From contig WQXN01000003.1 in assembly GCA_009784815.1 (NCBI GenBank), forward strand, positions 1 to 63,854: a stretch of DNA of 63,854 nt, written 5' to 3'. This stretch comes from Alphaproteobacteria bacterium. GTDB lineage: Bacteria > Pseudomonadota > Alphaproteobacteria > Rs-D84. Made by a program: the position numbers and the translations under genes. Shown piece after piece: positions 5,867 through 34,390 of this stretch; position 1 is the stretch's first letter, and the number at the start of each line of letters is the position of its first letter. Under the pieces are notes generated by a model. It had not been told where the DNA came from. It searched no databases and saw only the letters and a list, made by a program, of their open reading frames with translations.

Positions 5867-5945
5867 TTGCTTTTGAACTCGATTTGTGATATACTTGATC
5901 CATCAAAGCTAAAATATTATCCAATCCGCCCCCGGCGGTTTTTTT
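5867..5945 (+). promoter_or_regulatory. Promoter followed by an intrinsic terminator upstream of the first phage-like block
   Basis: TTGCTT-N17-TATACT, then CCGCC-CCC-GGCGG-T7 at 5926-5945. Confidence 0.55.
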
Positions 5946-5971
5946 ATTTCCCAAAATCAAGAGAACTCAAA

Positions 5972-6244
5972 ATGCACCTGGAATTAAAATGGTGGATCCA
6001 AGTAATAGTGATCCCGATAATCGGAGCGCTATTCATGTGGATCTCGCGCTTAAAATCGCACATGGATCTTTCCGACGAGAAAATCCGCGCGCACTTTTCG
6101 AACATACATAAAGATCTTGCCGACTACAAACTTGACGTCGCGCGGACCTACGCCTCGATCTCTTATATCAAGGACGTCGAAGCCCGCCTGACCCACCACC
6201 TGCTTCGCATAGAACGGAAACTGGAAAAAGGAGAACCAAAATGA
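5972..6244 (+). CDS. Phage-cluster membrane protein, holin-like
   Basis: N-terminal TM helix, then YKLDVARTYAS..YIKDVEARLTHHLLRIERKL; ATGA overlap with the hydrolase gene. Confidence 0.6.
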   Translation: MHLELKWWIQVIVIPIIGALFMWISRLKSHMDLSDEKIRAHFSNIHKDLADYKLDVARTYASISYIKDVEARLTHHLLRIERKLEKGEPK

Positions 6245-6690
6245 CCCAAGCCCTGACCGCCGCGCGAACCGCGCTTAACCCCGCCGCACACCTGACCGTC
6301 GAAGACAATCAAGACCTCTCGCGTCGAACATTGTACCGTCTTGCGCGCATAATCTACGCGGAAACCCACGCGGTGCTGCCTGATGCCGAAGCGCTGGCAA
6401 GCATGATCGCGAATCTGCGGCGCGCGAATAGCGCGCTTGAAGACATATCGGAAGATGCCGACCTGTTCGAATGCCTGAATAAAAAATCGGAACGCCACGC
6501 GGACCTATTAATAAGGTACGACTCGCGCGAACTTCAAATGTGCCTGCGCACCCTGTCGCGCGCGTTAAGCGGAGTTCTAAAAGATTCGACTCGCGGCGCG
6601 GTGCGATTTCACCGTGCCCAGCTTCTGCCCGACTGGGCTACAAGCGTCGGCTCGGTTTCCGAAATCGGCAACCTGCACTTTTATATTTAA
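6241..6690 (+). CDS. Cell wall hydrolase, SleB/Hydrolase_2-like, phage type
   Basis: LARIIYAE (catalytic E position), FECLN, DSTRGAVRFH, PDWA, IGNLHFY. Confidence 0.75.
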   Translation: MTQALTAARTALNPAAHLTVEDNQDLSRRTLYRLARIIYAETHAVLPDAEALASMIANLRRANSALEDISEDADLFECLNKKSERHADLLIRYDSRELQMCLRTLSRALSGVLKDSTRGAVRFHRAQLLPDWATSVGSVSEIGNLHFYI

Positions 6691-6867: not shown

Positions 6868-7131
6868 ATGACTATAAATTCTGCTCTAAGCGGAGGATGC
6901 CTCCGCGGAAAAAAAACTTACATCACCGCAGTCACCGGGGTAATTTCGGCTATTGGAATGTACCTTGCCGGCGACGCGGATTTATTTTTAACGCTGCATA
7001 CTATATTCCCGATGCTGGGAATGTTGTTTTTGCGCACAAGCATAAAGGAAAGAAAACATGACGAACGAAATTGCGATACCGGAAAAATTCAAAACTGCGA
7101 CGGGCGAAGCGAACCTCGAAGCGATACTTAA
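6868..7131 (+). CDS. Putative holin
   Basis: LRGKKTYI start typical of small phage holins, two TM segments; 3' end overlaps the scaffold gene and is uncertain. Confidence 0.5.
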   Translation: MTINSALSGGCLRGKKTYITAVTGVISAIGMYLAGDADLFLTLHTIFPMLGMLFLRTSIKERKHDERNCDTGKIQNCDGRSEPRSDT

Positions 7132-7672
7132 ATCCTACTCCGAACTTGAAAAAAAACTAAGCCAAGCTCCAAGCGCGCCGAAAGACGCCGCCGAATACGC
7201 GGCCCCCGGCTTTGGAGACAAAGACGACGACAATATAAGACAACAGTTTCTTGACATAGGCCTTACCAAAGACCAGGCCGAGAAAGTCTGCGCCCTTGCC
7301 GACTCTCTGATGAAGCCGATCGTAAGCGGTCTTATGGACGCTAACGGCGAAAGCTCCGAACTTGCCCAGCTGGAAAAGTTTTTCGGCGGCCCGGATAAAC
7401 TGGCGCCTGCATTGCAAGAGATCGAAGCGTTCGGGGCGAAATACCTGCCCGAAGACGCGTTCGAAACTCTCTGCTCGACGCATCAGGGAATCGTAAGCCT
7501 GTACAAGATGATGAAATCGCACGAGCCTGATATATCGACGAACAAGAACTCGTCGCAAAATTTATCCGAGAGCGAACTCAAAATAATGATGCGGGACCCG
7601 AAGTACTGGCGCGACCGCGATCCTGAATTCATACGTTCGATCGACACTGGATTCAAAAAACTATTTTCCTAA
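7058..7672 (+). CDS. Capsid assembly (scaffold) protein, T7 gp9-like
   Basis: IPEKF..G..NLEAILKSYSELEKKL at the N-terminus and MMRDPKYWRDRDP at the C-terminus. Confidence 0.75.
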   Translation: MTNEIAIPEKFKTATGEANLEAILKSYSELEKKLSQAPSAPKDAAEYAAPGFGDKDDDNIRQQFLDIGLTKDQAEKVCALADSLMKPIVSGLMDANGESSELAQLEKFFGGPDKLAPALQEIEAFGAKYLPEDAFETLCSTHQGIVSLYKMMKSHEPDISTNKNSSQNLSESELKIMMRDPKYWRDRDPEFIRSIDTGFKKLFS

Positions 7673-7810: not shown

Positions 7811-8041
7811 ATGTCATTGTTCTCAAAAAAGCCGGCTAAGAAAGTCGTCGCGAAAAAACCTGCTGCGAAAAAGGTTGCTGTAAAGAAACCTGCTGCGAAG
7901 AAGGTTGCCGCGAAGAAACCAGCCGTCAAAAAAGCTGCGGTTAAAAAATCGGTCGCCAAAAAAGTAGTCGCGAAGAAAGTCGTGGCGAAAAAGCCGGCCG
8001 TTAAGAAAGCCGTGAAAAAGAAAGTTGCGAAGAAAAAGTAA
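7811..8041 (+). CDS. Histone H1-like Lys/Ala-rich DNA-binding protein
   Basis: Tandem KKPAA/KKVAA pentapeptides; SD upstream and terminator at 8065-8088. Confidence 0.8.
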   Translation: MSLFSKKPAKKVVAKKPAAKKVAVKKPAAKKVAAKKPAVKKAAVKKSVAKKVVAKKVVAKKPAVKKAVKKKVAKKK

Positions 8042-11873: not shown

Positions 11874-12692
11874 ATGTCTATTCACATAGAAAAAGCATTT
11901 GTTAAACAATTCGAAGCGGACGTGCACCTGGCCTACCAGCAAATGGGCACCAAGCTTCGCTCGACCATTCGCAGCAAAAGCGGCGTGATCGGAAGCTCGA
12001 CCACATTCCAGCGCGTCGGCAAAGGCTTGGCCAACACCAAGTCCCGCCACGGTCTGGTGCCGGTTATGAACTTAAACCACGAACCGATCGAATGTCCCCT
12101 AAGCGATTACTACGCGGGCGACTGGGTCGACGCTTTGGATGAACTGAAAACGAACATCGACGAGCGACGCGTGGTGGCATCAGCCGGAGCCTACGCATTG
12201 GGCAGAAAAACGGACGAGCTTATCATAAGCGCGCTTAACACGGCGAACCAGGAAATCGGCGACTACGACTCGGGCCTGACCAAGGAATTGGTCCTGGAAG
12301 CGATCGGCGTTTTGAATAAAAAAGACGTTCCGGACGACGGCCGCCGTTTCGCGGTAGTCGGAGTAAAACAGTGGAACGACCTTCTGTCGATGGAAGAATT
12401 CACTTCCGCGGAATACGTCGGCGACAACCTGCCGTTCGTATCCGGCACCGAAACCAAGAAATGGATGGGCGTGATCTGGGTGCTTCATAACAGCCTCCCG
12501 GGTTCAAGCGATGAAACCGACTGCTTCATCTATCACTCGTCGGCGATCGGCCATGCCTGCGGTCAGGACGTCAAGTCCGACATCAGCTGGCACGGCGAGC
12601 GTGCAGCGCACTTCATATCGAACAGCATGAGCCAAGGCGCGTGCCTGATCGACGCAGAAGGCATCGTCCGCGTCAAATGCGGCGAAGAATAA
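11874..12692 (+). CDS. Major capsid protein, T7/BPP-1-like podovirus type
   Basis: AFVKQFEADVHLAYQQMGTKLR, YAGDWVDALDELK, AYALGRKTDELII, GACLIDAEGIV; strong SD. Confidence 0.88.
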   Translation: MSIHIEKAFVKQFEADVHLAYQQMGTKLRSTIRSKSGVIGSSTTFQRVGKGLANTKSRHGLVPVMNLNHEPIECPLSDYYAGDWVDALDELKTNIDERRVVASAGAYALGRKTDELIISALNTANQEIGDYDSGLTKELVLEAIGVLNKKDVPDDGRRFAVVGVKQWNDLLSMEEFTSAEYVGDNLPFVSGTETKKWMGVIWVLHNSLPGSSDETDCFIYHSSAIGHACGQDVKSDISWHGERAAHFISNSMSQGACLIDAEGIVRVKCGEE

Positions 12693-13010: not shown

Positions 13011-13385
13011 ATGCCAAACAAACTCGAAATCATCAATACCGCGTTGCTCAAAATCGGCGAAAACCCGATCGAATCTCTGACCGATCAATCGGCAAGCGCG
13101 ATCCTCGCCGACAAACTGTTCGAACCTGTGACTCGCAGCCTGCAGGACTCGTATAAATGGGAATTTATCGCGACGAAAGTCGAAGACTATCCCGACTATT
13201 TCTGCGGCGCGCTTGTCCTGAAACTTGCGGAAGAATTCTGCATACCGCTAACCGACAACCAAGCGCTTATGCGAACCCTGCGCGATCTATTTAAGGACGA
13301 ACTGAAACAAGCCAAACTCACCGATCTCCGCATATCTGGCCGCGCTCCGGTGAAAAATTTTTCTCTTATAAACGAGAGGTACTGA
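13011..13385 (+). CDS. Tail tubular protein A / adaptor, T7 gp11-like, shortened
   Basis: LEIINTALLKIGENPIESL, W.F, YFCGALVLKLAEEFCIPLT. Confidence 0.75.
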   Translation: MPNKLEIINTALLKIGENPIESLTDQSASAILADKLFEPVTRSLQDSYKWEFIATKVEDYPDYFCGALVLKLAEEFCIPLTDNQALMRTLRDLFKDELKQAKLTDLRISGRAPVKNFSLINERY

Positions 13386-13386
13386 A

Positions 13387-15117
13387 ATGAACGCCGGAAA
13401 ATTTACGCAAACCAATTCCAGCTTTTCGTTAGGCGTGGTGTCGCAGGACTTCTCAGGCCGCGGAGACCTTAAAACAGCGGCTCACGGCCTGTCGAAACTG
13501 GAAAACATGGACATAATATCGTCCGGCGGAATCAGCAGGCGCGCGGGCACAAGAGTCCTCGCCGCAAACCTGCCGGATGACGCAAAGATAATCCCTATGC
13601 GCCTTCGGTCCGGCGACGAATACATCATAGCCTTCGGCGACCGCACTATGCGCGTGTACAAGGACGGGGTCCAGCAAACCTCAAGAACTTCGCCCTGGTC
13701 GTCCGCCCAGCTCCCGAATATTCAAACGGCCCAGCTGGGAGACATGATGATTTTAACCCATCCCGACACCCACCCCCATCGTCTGCTTCTGAATATGGTG
13801 TGGCTTTTCGGTCCGCTAAGTTTTGCGATCGTGGACAACTGGTACCGCGAGCCTTACTTCAAATTCGAAAACTCGAACTATCCGTTCACGTTGCAAAACA
13901 TAACTGTGCCGGGCGCGACAAGACAAGCGCTGCTAACCGCGACCCACGATAACTGGACGCCGGAATCCGTGGGTTCCCGTATGCGCTTCGGCAACATCGA
14001 GTGGTGGATTTCGGAATACGTCAGCCCGACCCAAGTAAAAGTCTTTTCGAACAGCGCGTCTCCGGCTATGCCGACGGGAACGGTTACGGACTGGTCCGAA
14101 AGCGTGTTCAGCGACCGCCGCGGCTGGCCCAAAAGCATCGCCCTTCACCAGAACCGGCTTGTCTTCGGCGGAACAAAATCATTTCCGAACTTCGTATGGA
14201 TGTCCCGCACGGGGGACCACATGAACTTTGACGCGGGAACCGGTCTTGATAACCAAGCGGTGATCCTGTCCCTGCTTGCCGGCCGTCCTCAAAGCATCAC
14301 ATCTATCCAAAGCGGCGAGAATCTGGAAGTGCTGACCGACATGGGCGAATGGAGCATCAAAGGCGCGCCAATCACGCCAAGCGAAGCCCTGATCAGACAG
14401 CACACGGACATAGGATCAAGCATGGATATTCACGTACCTCCAAGCCGCGTCGACGGCGCGACGATATTCATCGGAAGAACCGGAAACGAACTGCGCGAAC
14501 TAAGGCTGGACAACCTAAGCGACTCGTACAGCGCGACGGATCTGTCGACCTTATCGCGCGACATCATGGGTACGGCGACGGGCATGACCTACCACCAGGA
14601 AACGAAAAGACTGCTGATAGTGATGCAAGACGGAACTATGGCCGTGCTGAAAAAAGACGACAACCTGGAAATACTTGGCTGGTCGACATACAAAACCGAC
14701 GGAGAATTCAAAAGCGTCGCGGTATCCAAGGGCCAAGTCCTTGCGGCCGTGAAACGCGGATCGGAAACTTTTATGGAAATCTTTGATGAAAATAAGATGA
14801 CGGACGGCGGCGCGAACTTTGCGTTCGAACATAAGGCGTCCGCAATGCCTATATTCGCGGACAGCGCCAAGGCCCGACTTGCGAAAGTAACGAAATGGAA
14901 AGCGCGGCTGAAAGACGCCGGCGCCCTGTCGGTGAAAATCAACGGCAACGCGGCTGAAGTGATACCGCTTCCCGAAACGCCATTCACGGGCGACGTTTCG
15001 GTGAACTCGCTTGGCACTACGCCGAACGGCCAATCTCCGCTGTGGGAAATCATAGGCAGCGAACCGCAACCTCTAACAGTGCTTTCGATCACGATCGAAG
15101 GCCGCCTCTCAACCTAA
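13387..15117 (+). CDS. Tail tubular protein B / nozzle, T7 gp12-like
   Basis: NSSFSLG, GGISRRAG, RGWPKSIALHQNRLVFGG, WMSRTGDHMNF, GWSTYKTDG, PQPLTVLSI. Confidence 0.82.
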   Translation: MNAGKFTQTNSSFSLGVVSQDFSGRGDLKTAAHGLSKLENMDIISSGGISRRAGTRVLAANLPDDAKIIPMRLRSGDEYIIAFGDRTMRVYKDGVQQTSRTSPWSSAQLPNIQTAQLGDMMILTHPDTHPHRLLLNMVWLFGPLSFAIVDNWYREPYFKFENSNYPFTLQNITVPGATRQALLTATHDNWTPESVGSRMRFGNIEWWISEYVSPTQVKVFSNSASPAMPTGTVTDWSESVFSDRRGWPKSIALHQNRLVFGGTKSFPNFVWMSRTGDHMNFDAGTGLDNQAVILSLLAGRPQSITSIQSGENLEVLTDMGEWSIKGAPITPSEALIRQHTDIGSSMDIHVPPSRVDGATIFIGRTGNELRELRLDNLSDSYSATDLSTLSRDIMGTATGMTYHQETKRLLIVMQDGTMAVLKKDDNLEILGWSTYKTDGEFKSVAVSKGQVLAAVKRGSETFMEIFDENKMTDGGANFAFEHKASAMPIFADSAKARLAKVTKWKARLKDAGALSVKINGNAAEVIPLPETPFTGDVSVNSLGTTPNGQSPLWEIIGSEPQPLTVLSITIEGRLST

Positions 15118-15133: not shown

Positions 15134-15508
15134 ATGTCCCAATACTCGAACGAAATCCAAGACATCATCGGTCTTAACAATAAAAAAGAAAATAAAAAAA
15201 TCCAATCCGAACGCGCGAAAGTCCTGGCTCAAATAGCCGAAGACAAGCGCACAAGATCGAACCTGGTGAAAAAAGCCCTGGCCGCGCAAAAGGCTAAATT
15301 CGGAGCCGGCGGCAGCGAAGGCAAATCCGACAGCGACCAAGCGGTGCTGAAACGTATCGAAGAGGAAACCGCAGAAGCCCTGGACGCCCAAATCGAGGCC
15401 AAGGAAGACAAGCTTTCGAAAATAAAGCGTCCGGCCCGCACCCGCGCCCCGCGCAACCTCTTAAAAAAACTTCTTAAACAATTTGAATCCGGTTTCTTAA
15501 ACGAATAA
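15134..15508 (+). CDS. Putative internal virion (ejection) protein
   Basis: Follows the nozzle gene; helical, with QKAKFGAGG...SDQAVL motif. Confidence 0.5.
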   Translation: MSQYSNEIQDIIGLNNKKENKKIQSERAKVLAQIAEDKRTRSNLVKKALAAQKAKFGAGGSEGKSDSDQAVLKRIEEETAEALDAQIEAKEDKLSKIKRPARTRAPRNLLKKLLKQFESGFLNE

Positions 15509-15544
15509 TAAATCACCCCGCACCCAGCGGGGTTTTTATAAACC

Positions 15545-15621
15545 TGGCGACCCGAGCAGGATTCGAACCTGCGACCTACTGATTAGAAATCAGTTGCTCT
15601 ATCCAGCTGAGCTACCGGGTC
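15545..15621 (-). tRNA. tRNA-Arg(UCU)
   Basis: Cloverleaf, loop TTTCTAA, GTTCGAATC, CCA. Confidence 0.95.
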
Positions 15622-15691
15622 AACGCGGCCATTCTACAATAAATTTCCCAAAAATCAACGCATTTTTACAAACGCAACCGGATCAAAATAT

Positions 15692-16291
15692 ATGAAAAAT
15701 GAATCCTCGGCACTTGCCTTTATAGACGGCTGGAACAAGCTGCTTAATATGACGACTCCGCCGCACCACGCGGAAATGTCGCGGTTTTTCGTGCAAACGG
15801 TGTTTGGAAAAAATCCTCGCGGGCTGATGATGTGCTTCCGTCACTCGGGCAAATCGTCAGTAGTGGGAATTATGACGGCCTGGCTTCTGACGGCGCGCCC
15901 CGAAAGCAGAATCCTGATTTTATCGGCGGAACAAACACTATCGTCCCGCATGGTCTCGCACATAAAAAACATAATCGAAAATCACCCAAGCTGCAAAGGC
16001 ATGACTCCGGAAATAAAAAAAGAATGGGCCTCGCACCGCATCACTATCAACCGCCCGCTAAGCCACCGCGAGCCGTCAGTAATCTGCCAAGGAATACACG
16101 GCAACATAACGGGCATGCGCGCGGACCTGGTAATCTGCGACGACGTGGAAGTGCCCAACACCTCGAACACGGGCCAAAAGCGCGCCAAATTACGCGAACG
16201 CCTCCGCGAACTGGATTTTATACTTTCTCCAGGCGGAGCGATGCTCTACCTAGGCACGCCCCACGCCTCGGACACTATCTACCAAGTATAG
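15692..16291 (+). CDS. Terminase large subunit, N-terminal ATPase half
   Basis: Walker A FRHSGKS, Walker B DLVICDDVE, coupling motif LGTPH; ends just after DTIY. Confidence 0.85.
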   Translation: MKNESSALAFIDGWNKLLNMTTPPHHAEMSRFFVQTVFGKNPRGLMMCFRHSGKSSVVGIMTAWLLTARPESRILILSAEQTLSSRMVSHIKNIIENHPSCKGMTPEIKKEWASHRITINRPLSHREPSVICQGIHGNITGMRADLVICDDVEVPNTSNTGQKRAKLRERLRELDFILSPGGAMLYLGTPHASDTIYQV

Positions 16292-16295
16292 CAAT

Positions 16296-16345
16296 TAACC
16301 CAAAAACCATTCGGTGTGTCGCGACACACCAAATGGTTTTTGTCC
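16296..16345 (+). repeat. Internally deleted copy of the long element (termini only)
   Basis: CCCAAAAACCATTCGGTGTGTCGCGACACACCAAATGGTTTTTGTCC matches the two ends of the 34219 copy. Confidence 0.88.
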
Positions 16346-17917
16346 TTATTCAAACTCTCCCGGCACATCATCTGGCACGGGCGCTTTTTCCATATGCGTA
16401 CCGACTGGATTATAAGCCTCCTGCTCGAACCTTCCCGCCTCGGGCAGCAGATCACTGAACCGGCTGTACTCTCCGCGCCATCCAAGATGTATTGTGCCGA
16501 TCGGTCCGTGTCGTTGCTTTGCGATGATAAGCTCGGCCTTATTTTTGTACCGCTCCATATCTTTCTGCCACCAGTCCTGCGCGACGCGTGACTTTTCTCC
16601 GTCTTTTTTGTTCAACTTTCCTGACGGATCCCTTCCCTGCAAATAATACTCGTGCCGATAAGTGAAAGCGACTATGTCGGCGTCCTGTTCGATTGATCCC
16701 GACTCGCGCAAATCGGAAAGTATTGGCCGCTTGTCGTCGCGCGATTCGACTGTTCTGGACAGCTGCGACAAAGCGATGACAGGAACGTTTAATTCTTTGG
16801 CCAGCATCTTAAGTCCACGGGTCATCTCGGACAACTCTTGAACTCGGTTGTCGTTTTTTCGTCCTCCGCCTGGGGCGGACAACAGCTGAATATAATCTAT
16901 GACTATCAAAGCGATCCCACCGTGCGACTTTTCATACTGTCGCTGCAACCTGCGGCACCGCGTGCGAATCATTGGCACTGATATGCCGGGGGTATCGTCC
17001 AAAACCAAAGGCAGCTTTTCAAGCTCTTTCGATTGTTCGGCCAACATCATAAGATCCGAATCGCTAAGAGTCCCGTTGCGCATGCTGCTGGACGGTATGT
17101 CGGACACCGAAGACAATATACGCGCGGCCAGCTGCGCGCTGCTCATTTCAAGGCTGAAAAATACGACCACACCGGACAGCTTTTTCGGAACCCTTCCGTG
17201 CGAAATCGCAAGCGCGGAATTAAAAGCCATGTTCATAGCGATCGCGGTTTTACCCATACCGGGGCGTCCGGCGATTATTATAAGATCGGAAGGATGAAGT
17301 CCGCCGATTGATCTGTCGACATCGGTGAACCCGCAAGTAAGCCCGGATAGATTTCCGTCGTTTTTCAAAGCGGCTTCGGTCTGTGACAAAGACTCGCGCA
17401 AAGCCTCTCCAATGGTCATGGACGCGCGTTCGGAACTTGCTCCGCTGTTGGCAAGTTCGAATAACTTCTGCTCAGCCAGCTCGATCTGAGCAACCGCAGG
17501 CAGATCAAGATTTTCGACTGTGGCGGTTTCCATGACTGACTGGCCTATGTCTATCAGCTGCCTACGCAAAGCGTTGTCGAATACTATTCGAGCATAATGC
17601 TCGACGTTCATAACCGAAGACCCCATACTGACCAGCTGATCAAGATATTCGGTGCCTCCTATATCTGTTAAAACTCCCTTCTGCTCCAGATAGTTGCGAA
17701 TTGTGACGACATCGGCCGGGAATCCTCTTGAAATCTGCTTATCTATAATATTGTAAATTTCTACGTGCGCGGGATGTGAAAAATGCTCACCCTTAAGGAA
17801 GTCCGACACTCGCTCGTGCGCGCGGTTATTCAGCAGAATAGCGGCCAATACGGCCTGCTCTGCCGCCGGATTGATAGGTAGATTTTTGTTTATGGAATCA
17901 TTGTTGGCTTGCGTCAT
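16346..17917 (-). CDS. dnaB: Replicative DNA helicase
   Basis: AEQAVLAAIL, AGRPGMGKT, FSLEMS, IDYIQL, LSQLSR, LRESGSIEQDAD, AKQRHGPIG. Confidence 0.97.
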   Translation of the reverse strand: MTQANNDSINKNLPINPAAEQAVLAAILLNNRAHERVSDFLKGEHFSHPAHVEIYNIIDKQISRGFPADVVTIRNYLEQKGVLTDIGGTEYLDQLVSMGSSVMNVEHYARIVFDNALRRQLIDIGQSVMETATVENLDLPAVAQIELAEQKLFELANSGASSERASMTIGEALRESLSQTEAALKNDGNLSGLTCGFTDVDRSIGGLHPSDLIIIAGRPGMGKTAIAMNMAFNSALAISHGRVPKKLSGVVVFFSLEMSSAQLAARILSSVSDIPSSSMRNGTLSDSDLMMLAEQSKELEKLPLVLDDTPGISVPMIRTRCRRLQRQYEKSHGGIALIVIDYIQLLSAPGGGRKNDNRVQELSEMTRGLKMLAKELNVPVIALSQLSRTVESRDDKRPILSDLRESGSIEQDADIVAFTYRHEYYLQGRDPSGKLNKKDGEKSRVAQDWWQKDMERYKNKAELIIAKQRHGPIGTIHLGWRGEYSRFSDLLPEAGRFEQEAYNPVGTHMEKAPVPDDVPGEFE

Positions 17918-17935
17918 AATCCTTCCTTCCCCTGC

Positions 17936-17972
17936 TGTCGTCCCGGACTCTGATCCGGGATCTCCTTATCCT
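17936..17972 (+). repeat. TGTC-tagged REP
   Basis: TGTCGTCCCGG-ACTCTGAT-CCGGGATCTCCTTATCCT; paralog at 21727. Confidence 0.75.
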
Positions 17973-18040
17973 CGACTCCTCAGCTTGTGACATCCTACCC
18001 CATAAATTTCACATTTCAACCCCTAAATAATGATAAAAAA

Positions 18041-18327
18041 ATAACCCAAAAACCACTAACGAAGTCGAAACCTAGGATAGACTAAATAAAAAATTTCAAA
18101 AAATCCTATCTCGGTCGCGTTTGCAAGGATAGATCATCCAACACCAAGTATAAATAATAATCCCAAAAACCATTAGGTGTGTCGCGACGTCGAGAAAAAA
18201 TCGCACAATACCAAGAAAGACCGACCGCCATAGGCCTTTATGGCTGCCACGGCGTGTCGGTCTTTCGAAGCGTAGTGGGTGATTTTATCCGACGGACGAA
18301 AAACACACCAAATGGTTTTTGTCCTTA
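18041..18327 (+). repeat. Stack of two left-end fragments plus one full long element
   Basis: Full copy 18161-18327 differs from 34219-34385 at three positions. Confidence 0.88.
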
Positions 18328-20832
18328 TTACCTCAACTCGGGCACGGTAAAGGATTCGCCAAGCTCAAGGGTGCGCGTACGTCCCCCGACAAGACTGACG
18401 GTGCACCGCATAGCCTCTCCAATACGAACCTCAAACTCCTCTCGCGCGGTCAAAGCCTGGCCTTCCCGGGCATTCTTAAAGCTCTCATTTGCCAACCAAG
18501 TTCCGGCCCAAATACCTCCGGCAGCTCCAACGACCGTAGTAGTAGTCGTAATGCCCCTACCTCTATCGTTCAAATTACCGTCGGCGTTTTGCAACCTGTT
18601 GCGCTCGGCGTTCAGAAGCCCTCTCAGCTGATCAAAAGCTGCATTCGCCGTTTCAGCATTCGCCGTTTCAGCAACGGTGACACTAGCAACGCTGGCTTTG
18701 AATCCTTCAGTCAACGTGCTGTTTGCAATCATGGATTTGGCGGCATTTATTCTTCCTACAACCGATGCTGCCGTGACAGCACCACCATCGACAGCCCTTT
18801 GCGTACCCAAAGCGGTCAAAGCTGAACTTATTTCGCCAATCGCCGCGCTTTGATTATCTCTGCCTCCAGCTATGCCGGACAATGCCCGTCCTCCAAAATA
18901 TCCGGCGGTTCCGCCAACACCGGCACCTCCAACAATAGCGGCAACGTTTGTCCAAAGTCGCGCATTCTTTGTCGTATCCTTTATGCGATCTCTGGTGGTG
19001 TTTTGGAAGTTTCTCAACACCGTATTGAAAATATCCTGCCTCAGCCACTGCCCACAGATAATAGTCGTGCCGGCAGGAACATATACAGTATGCGCGTTAA
19101 GGGTGTTGCCAACCTGGCGTACAACTTCCTGATCTCCCTGCACGGCTATGCTCACGCGTGAGAAACATGTGTCCGTAATGCCGCGTGTTGCAATATTAAC
19201 CGGCTCGACTTCTTTCCACCATGGATTTTCGATGTCATCAAGCAAATCCCTAGCTCCCCACAAAGTGTTTCCTCCAACGGCCTGGCACATATTCATCTTT
19301 CGCTCGTACTCGGACTGACGCTGCGCCGTAGCATTGCGTTCCAACATCCCAAGCATATCCCTGAACACGGCATTCTTGTTGGCCTCGACCGCCACCTGAG
19401 CCTGCCTTTGAACCTCTGGATCATTTGCATCGGTATTGGTAAAATGCAAAGTTACGCCCGAAACATTTCCCCAAGCCCCCAGTATAGAGCTTCCAGCGCC
19501 TTTGGATGCACCCATTATCTGGAAATACATATCGCAGTTTTCATCCATTACTACGGGATTCCAGCAAAACGCTTTGACGGAATTTTCATTCAGCCTGACC
19601 TGCAGGCCGCGCGCGCCAGCCCCCGTGATCTGACTGCATCCGAACAAGTTTTCTCCGCATTTATCAGTTACGCAACTATCCAACACCTGCATACAAGCGA
19701 CTTCTACCCTTCTAGCCGAATTCGGATCGAACATGCCATTAAGCAAAGCTGCAATCCTGTCAAAATCCGAATTAGTCGGAGCCGGCCTTCCAACAAACAA
19801 GCAAGCTGCGCTTCCCCTGTTCATCTCGTTGCATGAAGTGCCTATGACTCTCTGAATTCCCGAACCGTCCACGCTTGTTCCTCCGGCCTTTGCATCGGTA
19901 TAGCAAACCAAAGCCGTTCCTCCGCCGCAGTTTCTTCTGATGCAACCGTCTATATCGGCATTGCACCTTGCTTCCTGGTTCGCGGTGAACTGTGACATCA
20001 TGCTTATAATGTCTATTCGGCTCATGTAATTGTCATAAGCCCATTCGGTTACCGAATCCGGATCGTTAAGCCCCGAAATTCTGCGGCATTCTCTGTTATG
20101 TCCGACCCTGTCGATACAAGCCGCGCGAACGACGCGAAGCGGCGAATGCCTTTCTTCCTGCGCCTCGCACGCCTGAATGGTCATGGTGATGTTTGCGGCC
20201 GAGGCTGTCGCCATGCACGCGTTTATGCGATCTTCATAAACGGCGGCGCGATCGCACCTGAATGGATTTTCCGAACAAACGTCTGTCGCGCAGCGCACAA
20301 AAGCTCGGGAACAAGCGGTGGCGGAATTTTGGACGGCCCAAGCGGCCCCCTGATCGATCCATCTCTTTATAAGACTTCCGTCTCCCAGCGCGGCCTCGTT
20401 GCTAAGCGCCTGCAGGTTTTGGTTTCCTGCGCCGAACAAAGCTATTCGTCCGTTGTTGTCGCACTCGCGGAATCCGTTTCTGCACGGTCCGTTGTTTGCG
20501 ATAAATTCTTCATAAGTTGTGCAAAGCTCGAACTCTTCTCCGCACGCGCTCTCGCGGAACAAACAGCGGCGCGCCTGATTGATGCACTCTGATTCGCTAA
20601 GCGAGCGCTCGCTAACAGCGGCGTCTCCCTGAACTATCGCGGCGTTGACGGCTCCCAATGCGACTCCCGGAGTGTTCCACAGCCTTGTGTTTGCGGCTCC
20701 CGCCAAAGTCCCGCGGGTTGCCATGGCAGCGTGCGGAGCAACGCTGGGCCTTCCGCTTGCGACTACGTTTGCGCCGGCTTCCGCTACTATAAGAACGGCG
20801 GCCAACACTGCAAAAATTCTAGCGAACATCAT
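18328..20832 (-). CDS. Large secreted cysteine-rich protein
   Basis: Signal peptide, repeated CxxxxxxC..C helical units, glycine-zipper hydrophobic segments near the C-terminus. Confidence 0.75.
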   Translation of the reverse strand: MMFARIFAVLAAVLIVAEAGANVVASGRPSVAPHAAMATRGTLAGAANTRLWNTPGVALGAVNAAIVQGDAAVSERSLSESECINQARRCLFRESACGEEFELCTTYEEFIANNGPCRNGFRECDNNGRIALFGAGNQNLQALSNEAALGDGSLIKRWIDQGAAWAVQNSATACSRAFVRCATDVCSENPFRCDRAAVYEDRINACMATASAANITMTIQACEAQEERHSPLRVVRAACIDRVGHNRECRRISGLNDPDSVTEWAYDNYMSRIDIISMMSQFTANQEARCNADIDGCIRRNCGGGTALVCYTDAKAGGTSVDGSGIQRVIGTSCNEMNRGSAACLFVGRPAPTNSDFDRIAALLNGMFDPNSARRVEVACMQVLDSCVTDKCGENLFGCSQITGAGARGLQVRLNENSVKAFCWNPVVMDENCDMYFQIMGASKGAGSSILGAWGNVSGVTLHFTNTDANDPEVQRQAQVAVEANKNAVFRDMLGMLERNATAQRQSEYERKMNMCQAVGGNTLWGARDLLDDIENPWWKEVEPVNIATRGITDTCFSRVSIAVQGDQEVVRQVGNTLNAHTVYVPAGTTIICGQWLRQDIFNTVLRNFQNTTRDRIKDTTKNARLWTNVAAIVGGAGVGGTAGYFGGRALSGIAGGRDNQSAAIGEISSALTALGTQRAVDGGAVTAASVVGRINAAKSMIANSTLTEGFKASVASVTVAETANAETANAAFDQLRGLLNAERNRLQNADGNLNDRGRGITTTTTVVGAAGGIWAGTWLANESFKNAREGQALTAREEFEVRIGEAMRCTVSLVGGRTRTLELGESFTVPELR

Positions 20833-20897
20833 AGAATACTCCCTCTATTACTAAACATTTTATCACATTTAGCCCAAGCCCGCAAGAGAAGAATAAG

Positions 20898-21710
20898 ATG
20901 TCCCCCTTTCTAAGAAATTACTCTTTGCTGAAAATTCCGATCCTCAGGGAGGACGGCAAACCGGCCTGGCCGGAATTATTTCCCGAAGAAGAAATCCAGC
21001 GCATAAGGGAAACGGTCGGCCCTCGTCACTTCATGGCGCAAATGATGATGGAGTTCATAGCCCCGGAACGTTCCCGCCTGGACCCGGCGGCATTGATCGA
21101 ATACGATCTGAACTTCGACGCAAGAAACTCCAAACTTGGTGAAATGCTGACCACGGGCTTTTCGGCTTACTGGGACCCAAGCTCGGCTCGCGGCAATGCT
21201 GACGGCAGCGTCTGCGCGCTTGTCCTGTTTCACGCGCCTACCAAGCGTGCCTTCATACACGACATAATGTATATGCGGGTAAGCGATCACGACCTCCACC
21301 CTATGGCGACCCAAGCGGGCCTTGTTCTGGATTTTCTGAACAAACATATGATAAGACACCTAAGCGTGGAAACTAACGGTCTTGGCAACGCGCTGCCTGA
21401 AATCCTGCGCAGCCTTGCGGCGGCAAGAAACCAACCTCTGACGATTAATAGGATTACAAGCCGCGAAAGGAAAGAAATCCGCATAATAGACGCGCTCGAA
21501 CCTCTGCTTGCTACCGGCCGCCTCTTTATCAACAAGCCCTTGCTCAACAGCGAGCTTATGGCCGAAATGCAGGACTGGACTCCGGTTGGAGCGAACGTTG
21601 ATGACGGCATAGACGCGGTCGCGGGCGCCCTAAGATCGCAACCGATAGCAACCCGCACCCGCTCGCAAATATTCCACTCCCGCACCGCGAACACGGAATT
21701 TAAGATTTAA
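20898..21710 (+). CDS. Terminase large subunit, C-terminal RNase H-like nuclease half
   Basis: G.PAWPELF, FMAQMM, WDPS, DGSV, VETNGLG, KEIRIIDALEP, DDGIDAVAGAL. Confidence 0.85.
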   Translation: MSPFLRNYSLLKIPILREDGKPAWPELFPEEEIQRIRETVGPRHFMAQMMMEFIAPERSRLDPAALIEYDLNFDARNSKLGEMLTTGFSAYWDPSSARGNADGSVCALVLFHAPTKRAFIHDIMYMRVSDHDLHPMATQAGLVLDFLNKHMIRHLSVETNGLGNALPEILRSLAAARNQPLTINRITSRERKEIRIIDALEPLLATGRLFINKPLLNSELMAEMQDWTPVGANVDDGIDAVAGALRSQPIATRTRSQIFHSRTANTEFKI

Positions 21711-21810: not shown

Positions 21811-22278
21811 ATGAAAACAGAATACGGCAGATCATTACTGGAAATGGTTGGCGTCCTTGCAATCTCTGGAATACTCGCGGCGGCGGCGTTCCGCACATTC
21901 CAAGTGATACAAACGCGCCAGCACCGCGCGATCGCCGAAGACCAACTGCGCGAACTTGCTAACAACGCGAAAATCCTGTTCTCGGGCCGCCAAAGTTTTT
22001 CGGGGATTTCGACTAACTACCTGATAAAAGCGGGCGCGATCAAACATGATCGTTTTAGATTAGGAGGGCCGTTCACAGCAATGGCGCTTCCCAATACCCG
22101 CGACGGGATAAGATCGTTCGAAATCACGGTGCCGGACCTCAGCAATTCCGACTGCCTATATTTTGCGACGAAAAGATTCGACTTTGTGCACAGCGTAAAA
22201 GTCAACGGGTTCGAGCAAACCCCAACTTCCTACTGCCAACCCGGCACCACCAACGAACTAACCTTTATAATTAGATAA
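21811..22278 (+). CDS. Type IV pilin-like protein
   Basis: Class III signal G|RSLLE plus hydrophobic helix; C-terminal Cys pair; TTGCCC-N17-TATAAT-N6-ATG. Confidence 0.8.
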   Translation: MKTEYGRSLLEMVGVLAISGILAAAAFRTFQVIQTRQHRAIAEDQLRELANNAKILFSGRQSFSGISTNYLIKAGAIKHDRFRLGGPFTAMALPNTRDGIRSFEITVPDLSNSDCLYFATKRFDFVHSVKVNGFEQTPTSYCQPGTTNELTFIIR

Positions 22279-23460: not shown

Positions 23461-24816
23461 ATGAACACACTAGACCTTTATAAAAAGGCCATATCCGAGC
23501 GCGCCGAATGGAGCGCCCGCTGGACCAACTGCAAAAAATATACGCTTCCCGAAAGCGAATCCGACCAAGCCCAACTGTTTGACTCAACGGCAAGCGACGC
23601 GGCGGAATTACTGGCGGGCGCGATGTTCGGCATGATCACTCCGCCGGAAAGCGAATGGCTGAACCTGACGAACGACAATCCCGAATGCATGGCGGAACAG
23701 CAAGCGCAAAGCCTGCTGCGCCAGCATCTGAACAACTCGAACTTTTACACGACCGCGCACCAATGCTATCTGGATTTGGTGGTGCTTGGAACCGCCTGCC
23801 TGCTCTTCTCGGAAAACCCGATCGGCAGCGCAAGCGCATTCAACTTCCAAGCCCTGCCGATGAAGGATATAGCGATACTCCGCGACGCGTCCGACAACGT
23901 AAGCTCGGTGTTCTACACGACGTCTATGACGGCGCAAAGCCTGACGCAAAAATATCCGACATTCACCCTGCCCTCGGCGATTAAATCGAATCCGGAAACG
24001 CAAATACGAATAATCCAAAGCGTCGTGAATACGAACGGAAAATGGATTATGACATCGTGGGCGGACCTTGAAGGCAAATTTGAAAACAACACGCTCGAAA
24101 CGGGCGAGTTCAAAACAAATCCGTTCATAATATTCAGATGGTCTGCTGCCACGGGCGAGACCTACGGACGAAGCCCGATAATGCGGGCCTTACCCGACAT
24201 CAGAACCGCGAACAAAGTTGTGGAACTGATCTTAAAAAACGCAAGCATCGCGGCGGCGGGAATCTGGCAGGCGGATGACGACGGAGTGATCAACCTCTCG
24301 AACATAAATCTGACTCCCGGCGCGATAATCCCGAAAGCCGTCGGCTCTCAGGGCCTGACGCCGCTCCGTAGCGGAGCGGATTTCGACGTCTCGCAACTGG
24401 TGCTAAGCGACCTACGTGCGCGCATCAGGACGGCGCTTCTTACCGACAAATTATCGGCTATGACCGACAAGGTCATGACGGCGACGGAAGTGATCGCAAG
24501 GAACATGGATATGCTTCGGGTGCTTGGCGCGACCTACGGAAGAATGCTGTTCGAAATGATGACGCCATTAGTTGACCGCGGATTATATATCCTCTCGCGC
24601 CGCGGCCTGATTTCGGATGTAAAACTGGGCGGTGAAACGAAACTAAGATGCACTTCTCCGATTTCGAAAATATCGAACTCGGAACACGCGGCCCAAGTCA
24701 TGACCTGGATGGCGGAAGCTACCGCCGCGGGCATGGGCCACAAGATTAATTCTGACGCGGCCTTTAACTACATTGCCGACACTCTCCACATACCGAAACA
24801 ACTGATCGAGGCGTAA
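23461..24816 (+). CDS. Portal (head-tail connector), T7 gp8/Bbp21-like
   Basis: FDSTASDA, ITPPESEW, YLDLVVLGTA, RW...GETYGRSP, ADDDGVIN, MTATEV. Confidence 0.9.
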   Translation: MNTLDLYKKAISERAEWSARWTNCKKYTLPESESDQAQLFDSTASDAAELLAGAMFGMITPPESEWLNLTNDNPECMAEQQAQSLLRQHLNNSNFYTTAHQCYLDLVVLGTACLLFSENPIGSASAFNFQALPMKDIAILRDASDNVSSVFYTTSMTAQSLTQKYPTFTLPSAIKSNPETQIRIIQSVVNTNGKWIMTSWADLEGKFENNTLETGEFKTNPFIIFRWSAATGETYGRSPIMRALPDIRTANKVVELILKNASIAAAGIWQADDDGVINLSNINLTPGAIIPKAVGSQGLTPLRSGADFDVSQLVLSDLRARIRTALLTDKLSAMTDKVMTATEVIARNMDMLRVLGATYGRMLFEMMTPLVDRGLYILSRRGLISDVKLGGETKLRCTSPISKISNSEHAAQVMTWMAEATAAGMGHKINSDAAFNYIADTLHIPKQLIEA

Positions 24817-25014
24817 ATGGAGAAAAACTTCGCTCAATGCTTTTCGACAAATACCGGAGCGCAGGTGCTAAAACACCTGCGCTCTATAACGATCGAAAGA
24901 TACCTGGGACCGAACGCGACCGAGGCCCAGCTCCGAAGCCTCGAAGCCCAGCGCGCTCTGGTGCATCAAATCCTAAACCTTGTCGAAAGGGGGAAAAATG
25001 CAAACAAGCCCTAA
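24817..25014 (+). CDS. Bbp19-like phage protein
   Basis: F.T..G.QVLKHLR...LEAQRALVHQI pattern directly after the portal gene. Confidence 0.7.
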   Translation: MEKNFAQCFSTNTGAQVLKHLRSITIERYLGPNATEAQLRSLEAQRALVHQILNLVERGKNANKP

Positions 25015-25444
25015 TGGCCTAACCCTCATAAAAAAACACGAAGGCCTCCGCCTGACCCGCTACAAATGCCCGGCTAACTTATGGACGATCGGCTACGGCC
25101 ACCTGATCCAGCCGGGCGAAATTTTCGACGAACCGTTGGCAAAGGCCGCGGCCTCGGCCCTCCTGAAAAAAGACGTACGCATAGCGGAAGACGCTATAAA
25201 ACGAAACGTCATTGTGCCGCTGAATCAAAATCAGTTCGACGCGCTTGTGTCGTTGATATTTAATATCGGCGCAACCGCATTCCGTAATTCTACAGCGCTA
25301 AGATACGTGAACAATCCCGACTTCAAAAGCGGAACTTACCCGACGATGGAACAAGCGTGGAAAGCCTGGAACCGCGGAGGCGGCAGAATCCTGCCGGGCC
25401 TGGTCGCCCGCCGCTCCGACGAATGGAATCTTTATAATTCCTAG
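24998..25444 (+). CDS. Phage lysozyme (GH24)
   Basis: IKKHEGLRL.RY.CPANLWTIGYGH, LNQNQFDALVSLIFNIG, GLVARRSDE. Confidence 0.92.
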   Translation: MQTSPNGLTLIKKHEGLRLTRYKCPANLWTIGYGHLIQPGEIFDEPLAKAAASALLKKDVRIAEDAIKRNVIVPLNQNQFDALVSLIFNIGATAFRNSTALRYVNNPDFKSGTYPTMEQAWKAWNRGGGRILPGLVARRSDEWNLYNS

Positions 25445-31837: not shown

Positions 31838-32000
31838 TAAAAAACTCAAAAAATGCTAGGAAATCCATAGCCTATGAAAAATCGTTCAGCGCCAAGAAAA
31901 AACCGACCCGAGTAGGCCTTATAGGTCGCCGCGACGGTCGGTTTCTTGCCGGCGATCAATGATTTTTCATGGCGATTGAAATTTCCAGCATTTTTTGTCA
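31838..32000 (+). repeat. Long palindromic RPE-like element
   Basis: Same outer arms as 31474 but with the TAGGCC-type tip. Confidence 0.88.
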
Positions 32001-32010
32001 TAATAGCACC

Positions 32011-34161
32011 ATGGCGAAGCTAAGTCTATTTTCAGCGTCCGGCAAAGGCAAAGGCCTGGGTATTTTCTCAAGCAAGAAATACGACGAGCACAAGCGCGCC
32101 CCAATGGCGCAAATGTTCTGGCGCGGCCGCTTTACGGTTACTATGCTTCTTCTTTTATTCGGAATGCTTGCGGCAAGCTTTGCGGCGGAACACGTGCTTC
32201 GTTACGGCTGGACTCCTGCGACGCAAGCCTGGCTAAGAATCTACATGGACAATTTCATAGGCTCGTTCGGTCTAAGCGTGTTTGCTGAATTCCCAAGCTG
32301 GGCTACGCGCACATTGCTAAGAACGGACATCTACACAATATTTCCTGTGATCTCGTTCATAGCGTTTTTCGCTTTGCATAACAATGCGTTTATCTCTGAA
32401 TTTAATCCTTATGACGGAGATGCGCTATCCAAAAAATCCAGTCGCAAAGCCACCGAAGCGGACGTGAAAAAAATGGGCACCAAGGGCGGCAGTCTGTTCG
32501 AAGGCTTTATGATGGTGCTGGGCAAATTCAAAGGCAAGTTTGTAAAGCTGAACGAAACCTTGTCCGTGCTTTGCGTCGCGCCTCCTGGAACTGGTAAAAC
32601 TACCGGTATCGTTATGCCGACTCTGTTTGAATGCGACACGGTTTCTATGATAGTGAACGATCCAAAGCCTGAAATCGCGAAATTAACAAGCGGCTATCGT
32701 TCGACTATCGGCCCTGTGTTTATAATAGACTGGGCTGGCCAGGACGATCCGTCCCGGGGAATATACTACCCGTCGTGGAATCCTCTTTCTCCGTCGCACA
32801 TCCCAACCGACATGTCCGAGCGCGAGCTCTACGTAGACACGATCTGCAACGTCATGATCGGCGAAACCTCCAAAGAAATGCACTGGACTCTGACCGGCCG
32901 CGCGGCGCTAAGCGGATTTATACACTTCATGGTGTCCAAGATCGAACGTGCCCGCGCCAACGACTGGTTCCTTGCCAGAATCCGAAGCCAAACTTTTGAC
33001 GCCGAGGACGCCGACCTTCTGGCCACCTACTACGAGCCTATGTTCGACCCAAACTCTCAAGCGGCGCTGAACGCGCTCCAAGCGGGGCAAAAAATGACCG
33101 AAGCGAATTACGTCCCGATCGGAACCTGGGCCTCGATCCCGAAACAGTGGCTGGGAAAAGAAGCCTCTCTTTCGATGATTTTTGACTGGATCAACACGTC
33201 CCAGCTGGAAGTCGCCGCCAAAATGGAGGCGCGAAGGAAACAAGGCGACCAAATGGTTGCGTTGGAAGACAGCATGAAGGAAGTGTTTCAAATTGCCGTG
33301 AACGAGGCTCGTCAGTTTAACTACGCGCACCGCGCGGTGCTGGAACTTACGCAGATCGCTAACACTCCTGACAAGGAACGTGGTTCTATCCTGTCTACGG
33401 TCTTCTCAAGCCTTGGCATATTCAGGAACTCTGCGGTGCGTGCAAGAACCAGTCACTCGGACTTCAACTTCAGGGATCTGCGCGGCATGGTGGACCCGAA
33501 GGACGGCAAAATGAAGCCCGTTACGGTCTACCTTTCGGTTAATCAGGTGGACGCTCTTGCGCTTAATCCGATCACTGGAATATTTGTGGAATTGATGTCG
33601 AACTTTCTTATTTCGAATCCGCCTGAAACTCCGACGGCGGAAGGCAAGCTGGGTCCGACTCCGGTGCTGTTTGTCTTGGACGAATTTCCGAAAATGGTGA
33701 AACTGAACGCGGTCGTCGAAGGTCCTTCGGTCGGCCGCGGCCAGCAGGTTTCGTACCTTATGATCGGCCAGGATTTGGAACAGATTGCGGCTGGCTACAG
33801 CCGCGAAGCGATGGAAACTTTGATGTCCACTACTGCGGCGAAAATCGTGCTTCGCCAGAACAGCATGAAGACGGCGGAATTCTTCTCGCACATGATGGGC
33901 GACAAGGTCGAACTGGACGACGAAGGCAAAGCGAAAACCCCCTCTCCTCTCTATTCTCCGATGGACATAATAACGCTGGATCCGAAAAAGGAAATTATCA
34001 TAGTGCAGGGCCACGCGAACAGACCTATCGAAGCGGATCTTGCCTATTGGTTTAACGACGACGGTCTTAAGAAAAAACAGGCAGTCCCGGCCAGCAGCGC
34101 GCTTCCCGAATTTCTTATCGACAGTCACCGTCGCGCGATCGGCCTCCCCCCATTAAAATGA
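32011..34161 (+). CDS. virD4: Type IV secretion coupling protein VirD4/TraG
   Basis: N-terminal TMs, VAPPGTGKTTGIVMP, VNDPKPE, WNPL, SDF.FRDLR, LFVLDEFP, QDLEQI. Confidence 0.92.
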   Translation: MAKLSLFSASGKGKGLGIFSSKKYDEHKRAPMAQMFWRGRFTVTMLLLLFGMLAASFAAEHVLRYGWTPATQAWLRIYMDNFIGSFGLSVFAEFPSWATRTLLRTDIYTIFPVISFIAFFALHNNAFISEFNPYDGDALSKKSSRKATEADVKKMGTKGGSLFEGFMMVLGKFKGKFVKLNETLSVLCVAPPGTGKTTGIVMPTLFECDTVSMIVNDPKPEIAKLTSGYRSTIGPVFIIDWAGQDDPSRGIYYPSWNPLSPSHIPTDMSERELYVDTICNVMIGETSKEMHWTLTGRAALSGFIHFMVSKIERARANDWFLARIRSQTFDAEDADLLATYYEPMFDPNSQAALNALQAGQKMTEANYVPIGTWASIPKQWLGKEASLSMIFDWINTSQLEVAAKMEARRKQGDQMVALEDSMKEVFQIAVNEARQFNYAHRAVLELTQIANTPDKERGSILSTVFSSLGIFRNSAVRARTSHSDFNFRDLRGMVDPKDGKMKPVTVYLSVNQVDALALNPITGIFVELMSNFLISNPPETPTAEGKLGPTPVLFVLDEFPKMVKLNAVVEGPSVGRGQQVSYLMIGQDLEQIAAGYSREAMETLMSTTAAKIVLRQNSMKTAEFFSHMMGDKVELDDEGKAKTPSPLYSPMDIITLDPKKEIIIVQGHANRPIEADLAYWFNDDGLKKKQAVPASSALPEFLIDSHRRAIGLPPLK

Positions 34162-34385: not shown

Positions 34386-34390
34386 TTCTG

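Follow-up and report, generated by a model that had tools for sequence, protein, structure and literature searches.

The window analysed here is a stretch of 63,854 nucleotides (nt) from an alphaproteobacterium of the order Rs-D84 (assembly GCA_009784815.1, contig WQXN01000003.1, positions 1 to 63,854, forward strand). It contains two open reading frames (ORFs), 4606 nt apart, that match successive parts of TerL, the large subunit of the terminase, of T7-type phages. They are referred to below as the first and the second half, and are laid out as follows (pLDDT, predicted local distance difference test):

15692-16291, plus strand: TerL first half, 199 amino acids, Rossmann/RecA-like ATPase core, stop codon TAG
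20898-21068, plus strand: TerL second half, residues 1-57, completing the ATPase domain (strand, lid-type helices and linker)
21069-21653, plus strand: TerL second half, residues 58-252, RNase H-like nuclease domain with D93, E158, D235, D236 and D239
21654-21710, plus strand: TerL second half, C-terminal tail (residues 253-270) and stop codon, end of the ORF, pLDDT 54-60

The first ORF ends in ...GTPHASDTIYQV, followed by its TAG stop codon at 16289-16291. It carries the Walker A residues G53, K54 and S55, a Walker B motif with its catalytic glutamate (D150, D151 and E153) and motif III (G188, T189, P190 and H191). The second ORF (20898-21710, plus strand, 270 amino acids) begins with MSPFLRNYSLLKIPILREDGKPAWPELF, contains the motifs YWDPSS, SVETNGLG and VDDGIDA, and has the ending ...TxFKI that is common to members of the family. 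A preliminary description of this DNA had given these coordinates, with Walker A, Walker B and GTPH motifs in one frame and nuclease motifs in the other, and both ORFs are confirmed. The phrog_38 profile (PHROG, terminase large subunit, 760 positions) is matched by the first ORF at positions 283-458 (E 1e-39) and by the second at positions 482-701 (E 3.5e-35). As these ranges succeed each other without overlap, the ORFs are consecutive pieces of one protein. The second ORF is also recognised by the Pfam family Terminase-T7_RNaseH-like (PF22530; 36.2 bits, cut-off 27). A search of the whole genome (828 kb in 12 contigs, 87% complete) found these two pieces and no further copy of the terminase.

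Both parts have the family membership and fold of T7-type TerL proteins (phrog_38, Pfam PF03237 and PF22530; T7 gp19, PDB 4BIJ/4BIL; PhiV-1, PDB 8DGC), and the profile of the first half matches such proteins over residues 18-211 or 21-211 (E 7e-36 and 1.5e-36). The likeness extends to the Walker A, Walker B and motif III residues of an additional-strand catalytic-glutamate (ASCE) ATPase, to the acidic residues of an RNase H-like nuclease, and to neighbouring portal, scaffold, capsid and tail-tube genes of the same type. The T7 and PhiV-1 enzymes are single polypeptides, whereas here there are two genes, each half having its own start and stop in all 25 relatives in which the break was read. 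The cut corresponds to PhiV-1 residue 212/213, and the PhiV-1 segment 213-298 is represented here by 57 residues at the start of the second chain. We consider it likely that the two ORFs constitute an ancient, selected two-gene T7-type large terminase, the halves of which form one terminase protomer.

Conservation and fold position of the break

The comparison set comprised 41 related genomes. Break points were read on ORFs cut out of 25 of these relatives, representing six families (f1-f6), and a further 80 loci were obtained from a scan of species genomes, at least nine of their contigs being already among the 25. Matches to phrog_38 occur in 36 of the 41 relatives and in 191 of 201 sampled genomes of the order, mostly as two matches; one ends at about position 458-464 and the other begins at about 466-482. 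Both halves are present in 33 of the 41 relatives, neither in five, and only the first in two (G009 and G029); the remaining genome (G034) has only an unrelated terminase. The 637-amino-acid frame of G034 was rejected as a relative of this TerL, as it is a weakly matching terminase of another kind with no similarity to the halves of the window by tblastn. Three genomes (G011, which is 98% complete, G033 and G037) are without terminase, portal and capsid together.

The frame of the first half ends between -1 and +10 residues from the last residue of the window's first half in 25 of 25 relatives, from f1 to f6, and within -1 to +4 residues in 24 of them. All three stop codons are used, and a separate start codon opens the second half at the corresponding place. 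The first half ends between -3 and +17 residues from this position in all 80 further loci (between 0 and +7 in 74), one of which is a closed 958,618-bp long-read genome with the second half 3.36 kb downstream of the first. Conservation of the split point in sister genomes, proposed as a check in the preliminary description, is thus borne out in every relative and every further locus that was read. The two halves keep the same order and strand whenever they lie on one contig, and the DNA between them varies. Families f2, f4 and f5 and genus g12 of f1 have them side by side, separated by 153-586 nt. Of the 14 f1 genomes, 13 (10 of 11 genera) have the replicative helicase gene dnaB between them; it is encoded on the minus strand in 10 of these genomes and on the plus strand in three (G003, G007 and G023). 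In f3, the portal gene and other genes occupy this position, and in G001, a member of the window's genus, the portal gene directly follows the first half and the second half is on another contig.

Selection was estimated from the ratio of non-synonymous (dN) to synonymous (dS) divergence in 11 genome pairs for both halves, giving 22 comparisons. Values of dN ranged from 0.11 to 0.71, and dS was 1.17-2.83 in 13 of the 22 comparisons and too saturated to compute in the other nine. The resulting dN/dS ratios, for both halves, were 0.05-0.32. Walker A, Walker B with its glutamate, R50, R143 and GTPH (188-191) do not vary among 26 first halves, nor do D93, E158, D235, D236 and D239 among 21 second halves. 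Purifying selection on both halves, which the preliminary description had raised as a condition for a two-subunit motor, is supported by these ratios, the saturated dS and the invariant catalytic residues.

Structural alignment placed the cut within the fold. The model of the first half (pLDDT 90.6) aligned over residues 1-199 with residues 14-212 of PhiV-1 TerL (8dgc_E; Z 24.6, root-mean-square deviation [rmsd] 2.3, 196 residues aligned), with T4 gp17 111-299 (Z 16.5) and with residues 2-188 of the P74-26 ATPase domain (Z 15.8), for which the constructs have 250-258 residues; it was also aligned to HK97 1-197 and Sf6 4-157. In the model of the second half (pLDDT 83.3), the nuclease match starts at residue 54-60, equivalent to PhiV-1 299, T4 361, P74-26 257, Sf6 213 and HK97 273. 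For the nuclease part, VIA-align gave Z 17.3 with 8dgc_E 299-532 (rmsd 2.5, 180 residues aligned) and Z 16.4 with the P22 nuclease domain (4dkw_A), and the D6E TerL could be aligned from residue 2 of the second half onwards (chain 186-415, Z 15.7, 208 residues aligned). In solved terminases, the stretch that separates the first-half match from the nuclease match makes up the last 55-86 pre-nuclease residues (T4 gp17 300-360, P74-26 189-256, Sf6 158-212), and residues 1-57 of the second half correspond to it. This last pre-nuclease part of the ATPase domain is what we take, from work on P74-26, to be the lid subdomain. The preliminary description had put the split at the linker between ATPase and nuclease. 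The structure alignments move the nuclease boundary to about residue 58 of the second half, and the break precedes the nuclease domain by some 57 residues and falls within the ATPase domain as crystallographers define it, between the Rossmann core and the lid subdomain. Residues 1-57 fold poorly alone (pLDDT 52-75). They are no less conserved than the nuclease part, with a majority-residue fraction of 0.63 against 0.57, and are the better conserved of the two in seven of seven cross-family comparisons.

The complex model of the two halves scored 0.87, and the best of three controls scored 0.00. Of 80 solved complexes, 58 attain the mark of 0.87, as do two of 110 mismatched pairs; this calibration is rough because the complex was modelled with our own alignments. 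The runs agreed in at least 91% of contacts, with a partner pLDDT of at least 79. Residues 3-15 of the second half lie against residues 43-52 of the first (the strand before Walker A) and residues 47-55 against residues 184-199, and residues 23-28 are also among the contacts with 43-52 and 184-199. The model places the first strand of the second half back into the ATPase sheet, with a predicted insertion of second-half residues 8-15 alongside residues 43-49 of the first half. The first gene would supply the Rossmann ATPase core and the second the rest of the ATPase domain (the strand beside the Walker A strand and lid-type helices), the linker and the nuclease. Both chains would then come together non-covalently as one terminase protomer, which would act on the portal like a normal TerL. 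By this modelling of the heterodimer, a check that had been proposed beforehand, the pair looks like an intact terminase. With the fixed break and the selection on both halves, a two-subunit enzyme, as first envisaged, is the best reading in silico.

Fused relatives and history of the split

A profile of the first half was run against 401 sampled genomes, about 397 of them from other alphaproteobacterial families, with E <= 1e-64 taken as a strong match. Very close relatives (E 1e-64 to 1e-92) were found in 55 genomes of other alphaproteobacterial families, 54 of them in frames of at least 399 amino acids and one in a frame of 230, and the four in-order matches of the same search were in frames of 202-226 amino acids. 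Twelve distinct outside loci were read directly, and each has a single ORF of 470-507 amino acids with both parts in one frame. Most of the best 150 matches in a global protein library are 450-600 amino acids long. The fused proteins are 43-53% identical to the first half of the window, which is as close as other families of its own order. The preliminary description had regarded a fused gene in relatives, together with relaxed selection on the halves or a lack of their expression, as a sign of a recent pseudogene. Fused genes are found only outside the order, and the halves within it are under selection. The fused TerL genes of other alphaproteobacterial orders (loci L127-L140) are the nearest sequence relatives and have the same neighbours, with the difference that they are single ORFs in compact clusters that, unlike the window, have no host genes interleaved. 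Such a cluster consists of portal, scaffold, capsid, tail tube A and B, a few genes including a collar-domain fibre, the terminase, orf125 and orf149. A T7-like cluster with a fused terminase occurs once per genome in those 55 genomes, the sizes of which run from 1.1 to 6.6 Mb. In locus L135 the cluster directly abuts the dihydroorotate dehydrogenase gene and other host genes, and for this reason domestication may be much older than the order.

The spacing between the TIY and FLxG motifs is about 13 residues in the fused form (two distinct proteins in which the motif patterns matched), and in the split form the tail and head sum to 5-23 residues. The cut fell in a short loop, and the rest of the protein was retained. 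This agrees with the preliminary description, according to which the halves were contiguous with little missing, and with the consecutive phrog_38 ranges. Motif III (GTPH...TIY) precedes this loop and the next strand (PFLxGY..LKIPI) follows it. The gene was originally fused, and the cut arose in the order's common ancestor, in a surface loop some 13 residues long. A single fission at the root of the order, with insertions and inversions later taking place between the halves, is the simplest history. At first, the cut would have been a short spacer with a stop codon and a new start, and the halves are still 150-590 nt apart in f2, f4, f5 and g12; host genes would later have moved between the halves, dnaB in f1 and the portal and other genes in f3. 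The dnaB gene in the window is the sole DnaB_C match in the genome, so its excision cannot restore a fused gene.

Many Enterousia genomes (L003-L007 and many of genus g14) also carry a second, full-length T7-like terminase (phrog_38, E 1e-74 to 1e-115). These proteins have no detectable similarity to the split one (E about 7), and for that reason they were not used as an outgroup; they may come from true prophages.

Weighing of the alternatives

Several observations count against a two-gene terminase that works as one enzyme throughout the order. G029 (99% complete; contig C64, locus L141) and G009 (93%) have an intact first half beside capsid and tail genes, and profile searches found no second half in either genome. 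In G029, neither tblastn nor hmmsearch found one in 16 kb around the cluster, where noise had E >= 0.028. An obligate pair would not predict this state. The first half of G030 has an in-frame TAG near its start, and that of G012 is in two pieces. The second half evolves faster than the first, with a cross-family identity of 28-35% against 43-49%. The first ORF scores 21.1 bits for Pfam Terminase_6N, below the cut-off of 22, and no small terminase was recognised. As whole terminases have been solved, the passing of the complex test shows likeness to an intact terminase and not binding of these two chains, and it may stem from the model's memory of solved TerLs. In a tree of the N-terminal part, the split sequences do not lie on one side of a branch; two changes are needed, and just 3% of the bootstrap trees need one. 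A single group of split sequences was not rejected by the approximately unbiased (AU) test (p 0.246), and a quick tree of the C-terminal part, built with untrimmed fused rows and 493 columns kept, has all fused sequences on one side of a branch with a support of 95.

Some of these points would fit halves that no longer work together, each being kept for a job of its own without a stable protomer; the ATPase core might act with the portal, say, and the lid-nuclease chain might be a free DNA nuclease. Intact first halves in genomes without a detected second half, different evolutionary rates, and separate transcription contexts with opposite-strand genes between the halves are all in keeping with separate jobs. 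The first half is, however, without about a quarter of an ATPase domain (it covers residues 2-188 of P74-26 constructs of 250-258 residues), and the missing piece is carried by the second half as its best-conserved part. The predicted interface (0.87 against 0.00 for controls), the joint presence of the halves in 33 of 41 genomes, and the three genomes that lack the halves, capsid and portal together also speak against it. We regard separate jobs as unlikely.

A recent break at a dispersed repeat, possibly leaving a young pseudogene, was the origin proposed in the preliminary description. Two copies of a family resembling miniature inverted-repeat transposable elements (MITE-like) bear on this idea:

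16296-16350, no strand assigned: short hairpin copy of the MITE-like repeat, terminator-like (families D1, I3 and I6; terminator-like site 16313-16330)
18156-18329, no strand assigned: full 174-nt copy of the MITE-like repeat (family D3; second copy at 34214-34387, 98% identical)

The hairpin copy occupies the gap in which the first half and dnaB converge, so that a repeat directly follows the stop codon, as had been noted. The stop itself falls within CCAAGTATA, a motif found ahead of repeats at three places in the window (16282, 18144 and 43594), against 0.19 expected; one of 100 shuffles reached three. Inverted repeat ends of family I3 moreover flank dnaB. Against a recent break, the same break occurs in six families, dS is saturated, dN/dS does not exceed 0.32 and the catalytic residues are invariant. 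The first-half copy of CCAAGTATA consists of conserved Tyr-Gln-Val codons, and three genomes of the same genus (G001, G002 and G003) stop after the same YQV, the DNA past the stop differing in each. None of their loci contains the repeat core CCAAAAACCATT. The repeat next to the stop therefore arrived later and is specific to this lineage, and the excess of CCAAGTATA may reflect an insertion-site preference. A repeat-associated origin of the split is very improbable, being contradicted by the constant break point and the undamaged ORFs throughout the order, and the repeats may instead explain later shuffling of the DNA between the halves.

As to the repeats themselves, shorter relatives are found at about 5175, 6694, 28679, 29810 and 43543. 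The family is palindromic, has several sub-types and fills the intergenic spacers of this tiny genome, and public contigs break there. The inverted ends flanking the sole dnaB are at 16318-16350 and 18156-18188. The differing orientation of dnaB among relatives suggests repeated inversion of the segment.

Rejoining of the pieces after transcription or translation, by a group I or group II intron, by trans-splicing or by a split intein, has precedents. Intron-split terL genes are known, and in Jug phages they are spliced back (PMC12880540); an interrupted terL is also reported from Bastillevirinae (PMC11878797). In both cases, as here, the frame lies in at least two DNA pieces. The constant order and strand of the halves on single contigs would also suit rejoining. 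In genes interrupted by introns or inteins, the pieces lie in one transcript and are rejoined by RNA or protein splicing, whereas here opposite-strand host genes, including the sole dnaB, lie between them. No Rfam intron family was found at E <= 1 between 15000 and 22000 of the window, where the only matches were the tRNA and others at chance level, or in six loci with adjacent halves, Rfam covering described families only. An intein was rejected: the first half ends 2-12 residues after TIY and the second starts 2-22 residues before FLxG, so there is no room for intein fragments, and the alignments have no conserved Cys, Ser or Thr after the second-half start. Rejoining is hence highly unlikely for the two halves.

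The least credible alternative is a wrong join at a repeat in an assembly of a chromosome in which the halves are really adjacent or fused. Public contigs break only at the 174-nt repeat (18145-18329), which has its second copy in the window, and the 4.6-kb distance in this genome therefore rests on the path through that repeat. A 6057-nt contig of sequencing run X2, which may be the source sample, covers 15500-18173 without difference, a stretch with the first half and its stop codon, the hairpin and the complete dnaB gene, and the split is present in more than 100 separate assemblies, among them the closed long-read genome. No conclusion was drawn from gaps in contig cover (run X1 had none over about 15714-18067, and X3 and X4 gave scraps). 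A wrong join could alter the distance between the halves, not the split.

Neighbouring phage-type genes and their possible role

The terminase halves belong to a series of T7-type virion genes that extends over about 20 kb of the window with host genes in between. The order is orf125, orf149 and scaffold; tRNA-Tyr and an M48 peptidase; capsid, tail tube A and B and orf124; tRNA-Arg; the first half; dnaB and a Cys-rich gene; the second half; a pilin-like gene and ParA; the portal; and an endolysin. The features other than the terminase are:

5867-6690, plus strand: orf125 and orf149, two small genes that directly follow the fused TerL in L133, L135, L136, L137 and L138 (tblastn)
7058-7672, plus strand: T7-type scaffold (capsid assembly) protein, Pfam Phage_T7_Capsid, 4.8e-09
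11874-12692, plus strand: major capsid protein, phrog_3437, 2.1e-70, present in 35 of 41 relatives
13011-13385, plus strand: tail tubular protein A, phrog_394, 6.3e-22
13387-15117, plus strand: tail tubular protein B, phrog_376, 4.9e-78
15134-15508, plus strand: orf124, directly upstream of the TerL first half in 13 of 13 f1 loci, no Pfam or PHROG match
15545-15621, minus strand: tRNA-Arg(TCT), between orf124 and the first half (ARAGORN; Rfam tRNA, 71 bits)
16346-17917, minus strand: dnaB, replicative helicase, Pfam DnaB_C 4.9e-97 and DnaB N-terminal domain
18328-20832, minus strand: Cys-rich ORF of 834 amino acids, signal-like N-terminus, no Pfam or PHROG match, host envelope-type gene
23461-24816, plus strand: T7-type portal (head-to-tail connector), Pfam Head-tail_con 7.5e-92, present in 34 of 41 relatives
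24980-25444, plus strand: endolysin-like gene after the portal, phrog_7, 2.1e-50

The orf124 product is a charged helical protein with a weak match ahead of the fused TerL in L138. Its position, which is that of the small terminase gene in T7, makes it a candidate small terminase. The dnaB product is 83-84% identical to the 'replicative DNA helicase' of related metagenome-assembled genomes (MAGs), and homologues of the Cys-rich ORF adjoin dnaB or the second half in G001 and G002. In the relatives, portal and capsid genes share contigs with the terminase halves. The rest of the window encodes housekeeping functions (AlaRS, MiaA, PriA, RRF, UppS, CdsA, RseP and BamA). No tyrosine recombinase or integrase gene was found on this contig, the three tyrosine recombinases of the genome being on other contigs. 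T7 RNA polymerase (PF00940) had no match in the genome, which is 87% complete, and the control also matched in no genome searched. A promoter scan gave six sites against 5.8 expected, and there were 13 terminator-like sites against 7.7 expected.

Three further observations were made. Lys/Ala-rich tandem repeats of 15 and 30 nt directly follow the scaffold gene (7826-7999). An ORF of 155 amino acids at 21811-22278 has a weak N_methyl match and a prepilin-type N-terminus; such a pilin-like ORF also follows the second half in the window's genus, in genus g12 and in families f2 and f5, and it may belong to the phage-derived set and not to a pilus system. A gene for a VirD4/TraG-type coupling protein of type IV secretion (31969-34161) adjoins a repeat copy.

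Related records are MAGs from termite, rumen and other guts, named 'Candidatus Enterousia', 'Rickettsiales bacterium' or 'Alphaproteobacteria bacterium'. Enterousia has been placed in the uncultured order Rs-D84, all members of which are reported to have reduced genomes, and the main text of that report on Rs-D84 genomes never mentions phage, terminase, capsid or gene transfer agent (PMC12306168). A literature search of main texts found neither a two-gene TerL nor a phage-derived element of this order described in print; PMC2147016, PMC7431792 and PMC6563490 proved to deal with subjects other than split terminases.

Judging from gene content and phylogenetic spread, the split TerL would belong to a phage-derived head, short-tail and packaging set that is inherited vertically in the order. 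The set would represent a long-domesticated system that is probably still working. Gene transfer agents (GTAs) offer a close parallel, being phage gene sets limited to structure and packaging that are kept by the host, inherited vertically and, as here, broken up by intervening host genes into several pieces. In this order, too, inheritance is vertical and selection purifying (191 of 201 genomes, dN/dS 0.05-0.32, shared neighbourhood). In the composition of the module, host genes (tRNA-Tyr, the M48 peptidase, tRNA-Arg, the sole dnaB and ParA) stand between the phage-type genes. The GTA reports consulted describe no split terminase. RcGTA is of the siphovirus type, with another portal and capsid family. 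The phage-type set is thus a candidate podovirus-type GTA in Alphaproteobacteria, a role that is plausible on this gene content.

The ATPase and nuclease functions of a packaging motor have also been uncoupled in the evolution of phi29 gp16, which is reported to have a vestigial nuclease domain (PMC7672431). In phi29, nuclease activity was lost within one chain, whereas the present enzyme retains its nuclease residues and has its chain interrupted within the ATPase domain. A more far-reaching proposal, rather doubtful at present, is that this is a natural two-chain motor, in which the covalent link from the core to the lid and nuclease has been dispensable throughout the history of the order, and that the host uses the split as an interlock gating podovirus-type gene-transfer particles. 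An active, chromosome-cutting terminase would then form only when two separately controlled genes, in one family flanking the replicative helicase gene, are co-expressed.

In annotation, neither 'pseudogene' nor 'fragment' is an apt label for such half-genes. Large terminases count among the strongest molecular motors known, and the solved or described cases that we found are single chains or are spliced back to one. An order-wide, selected cut between the ATPase core and the lid is a natural experiment on the need for a covalent link, and asks whether this link is needed for force generation and for the hand-over from packaging to cutting.

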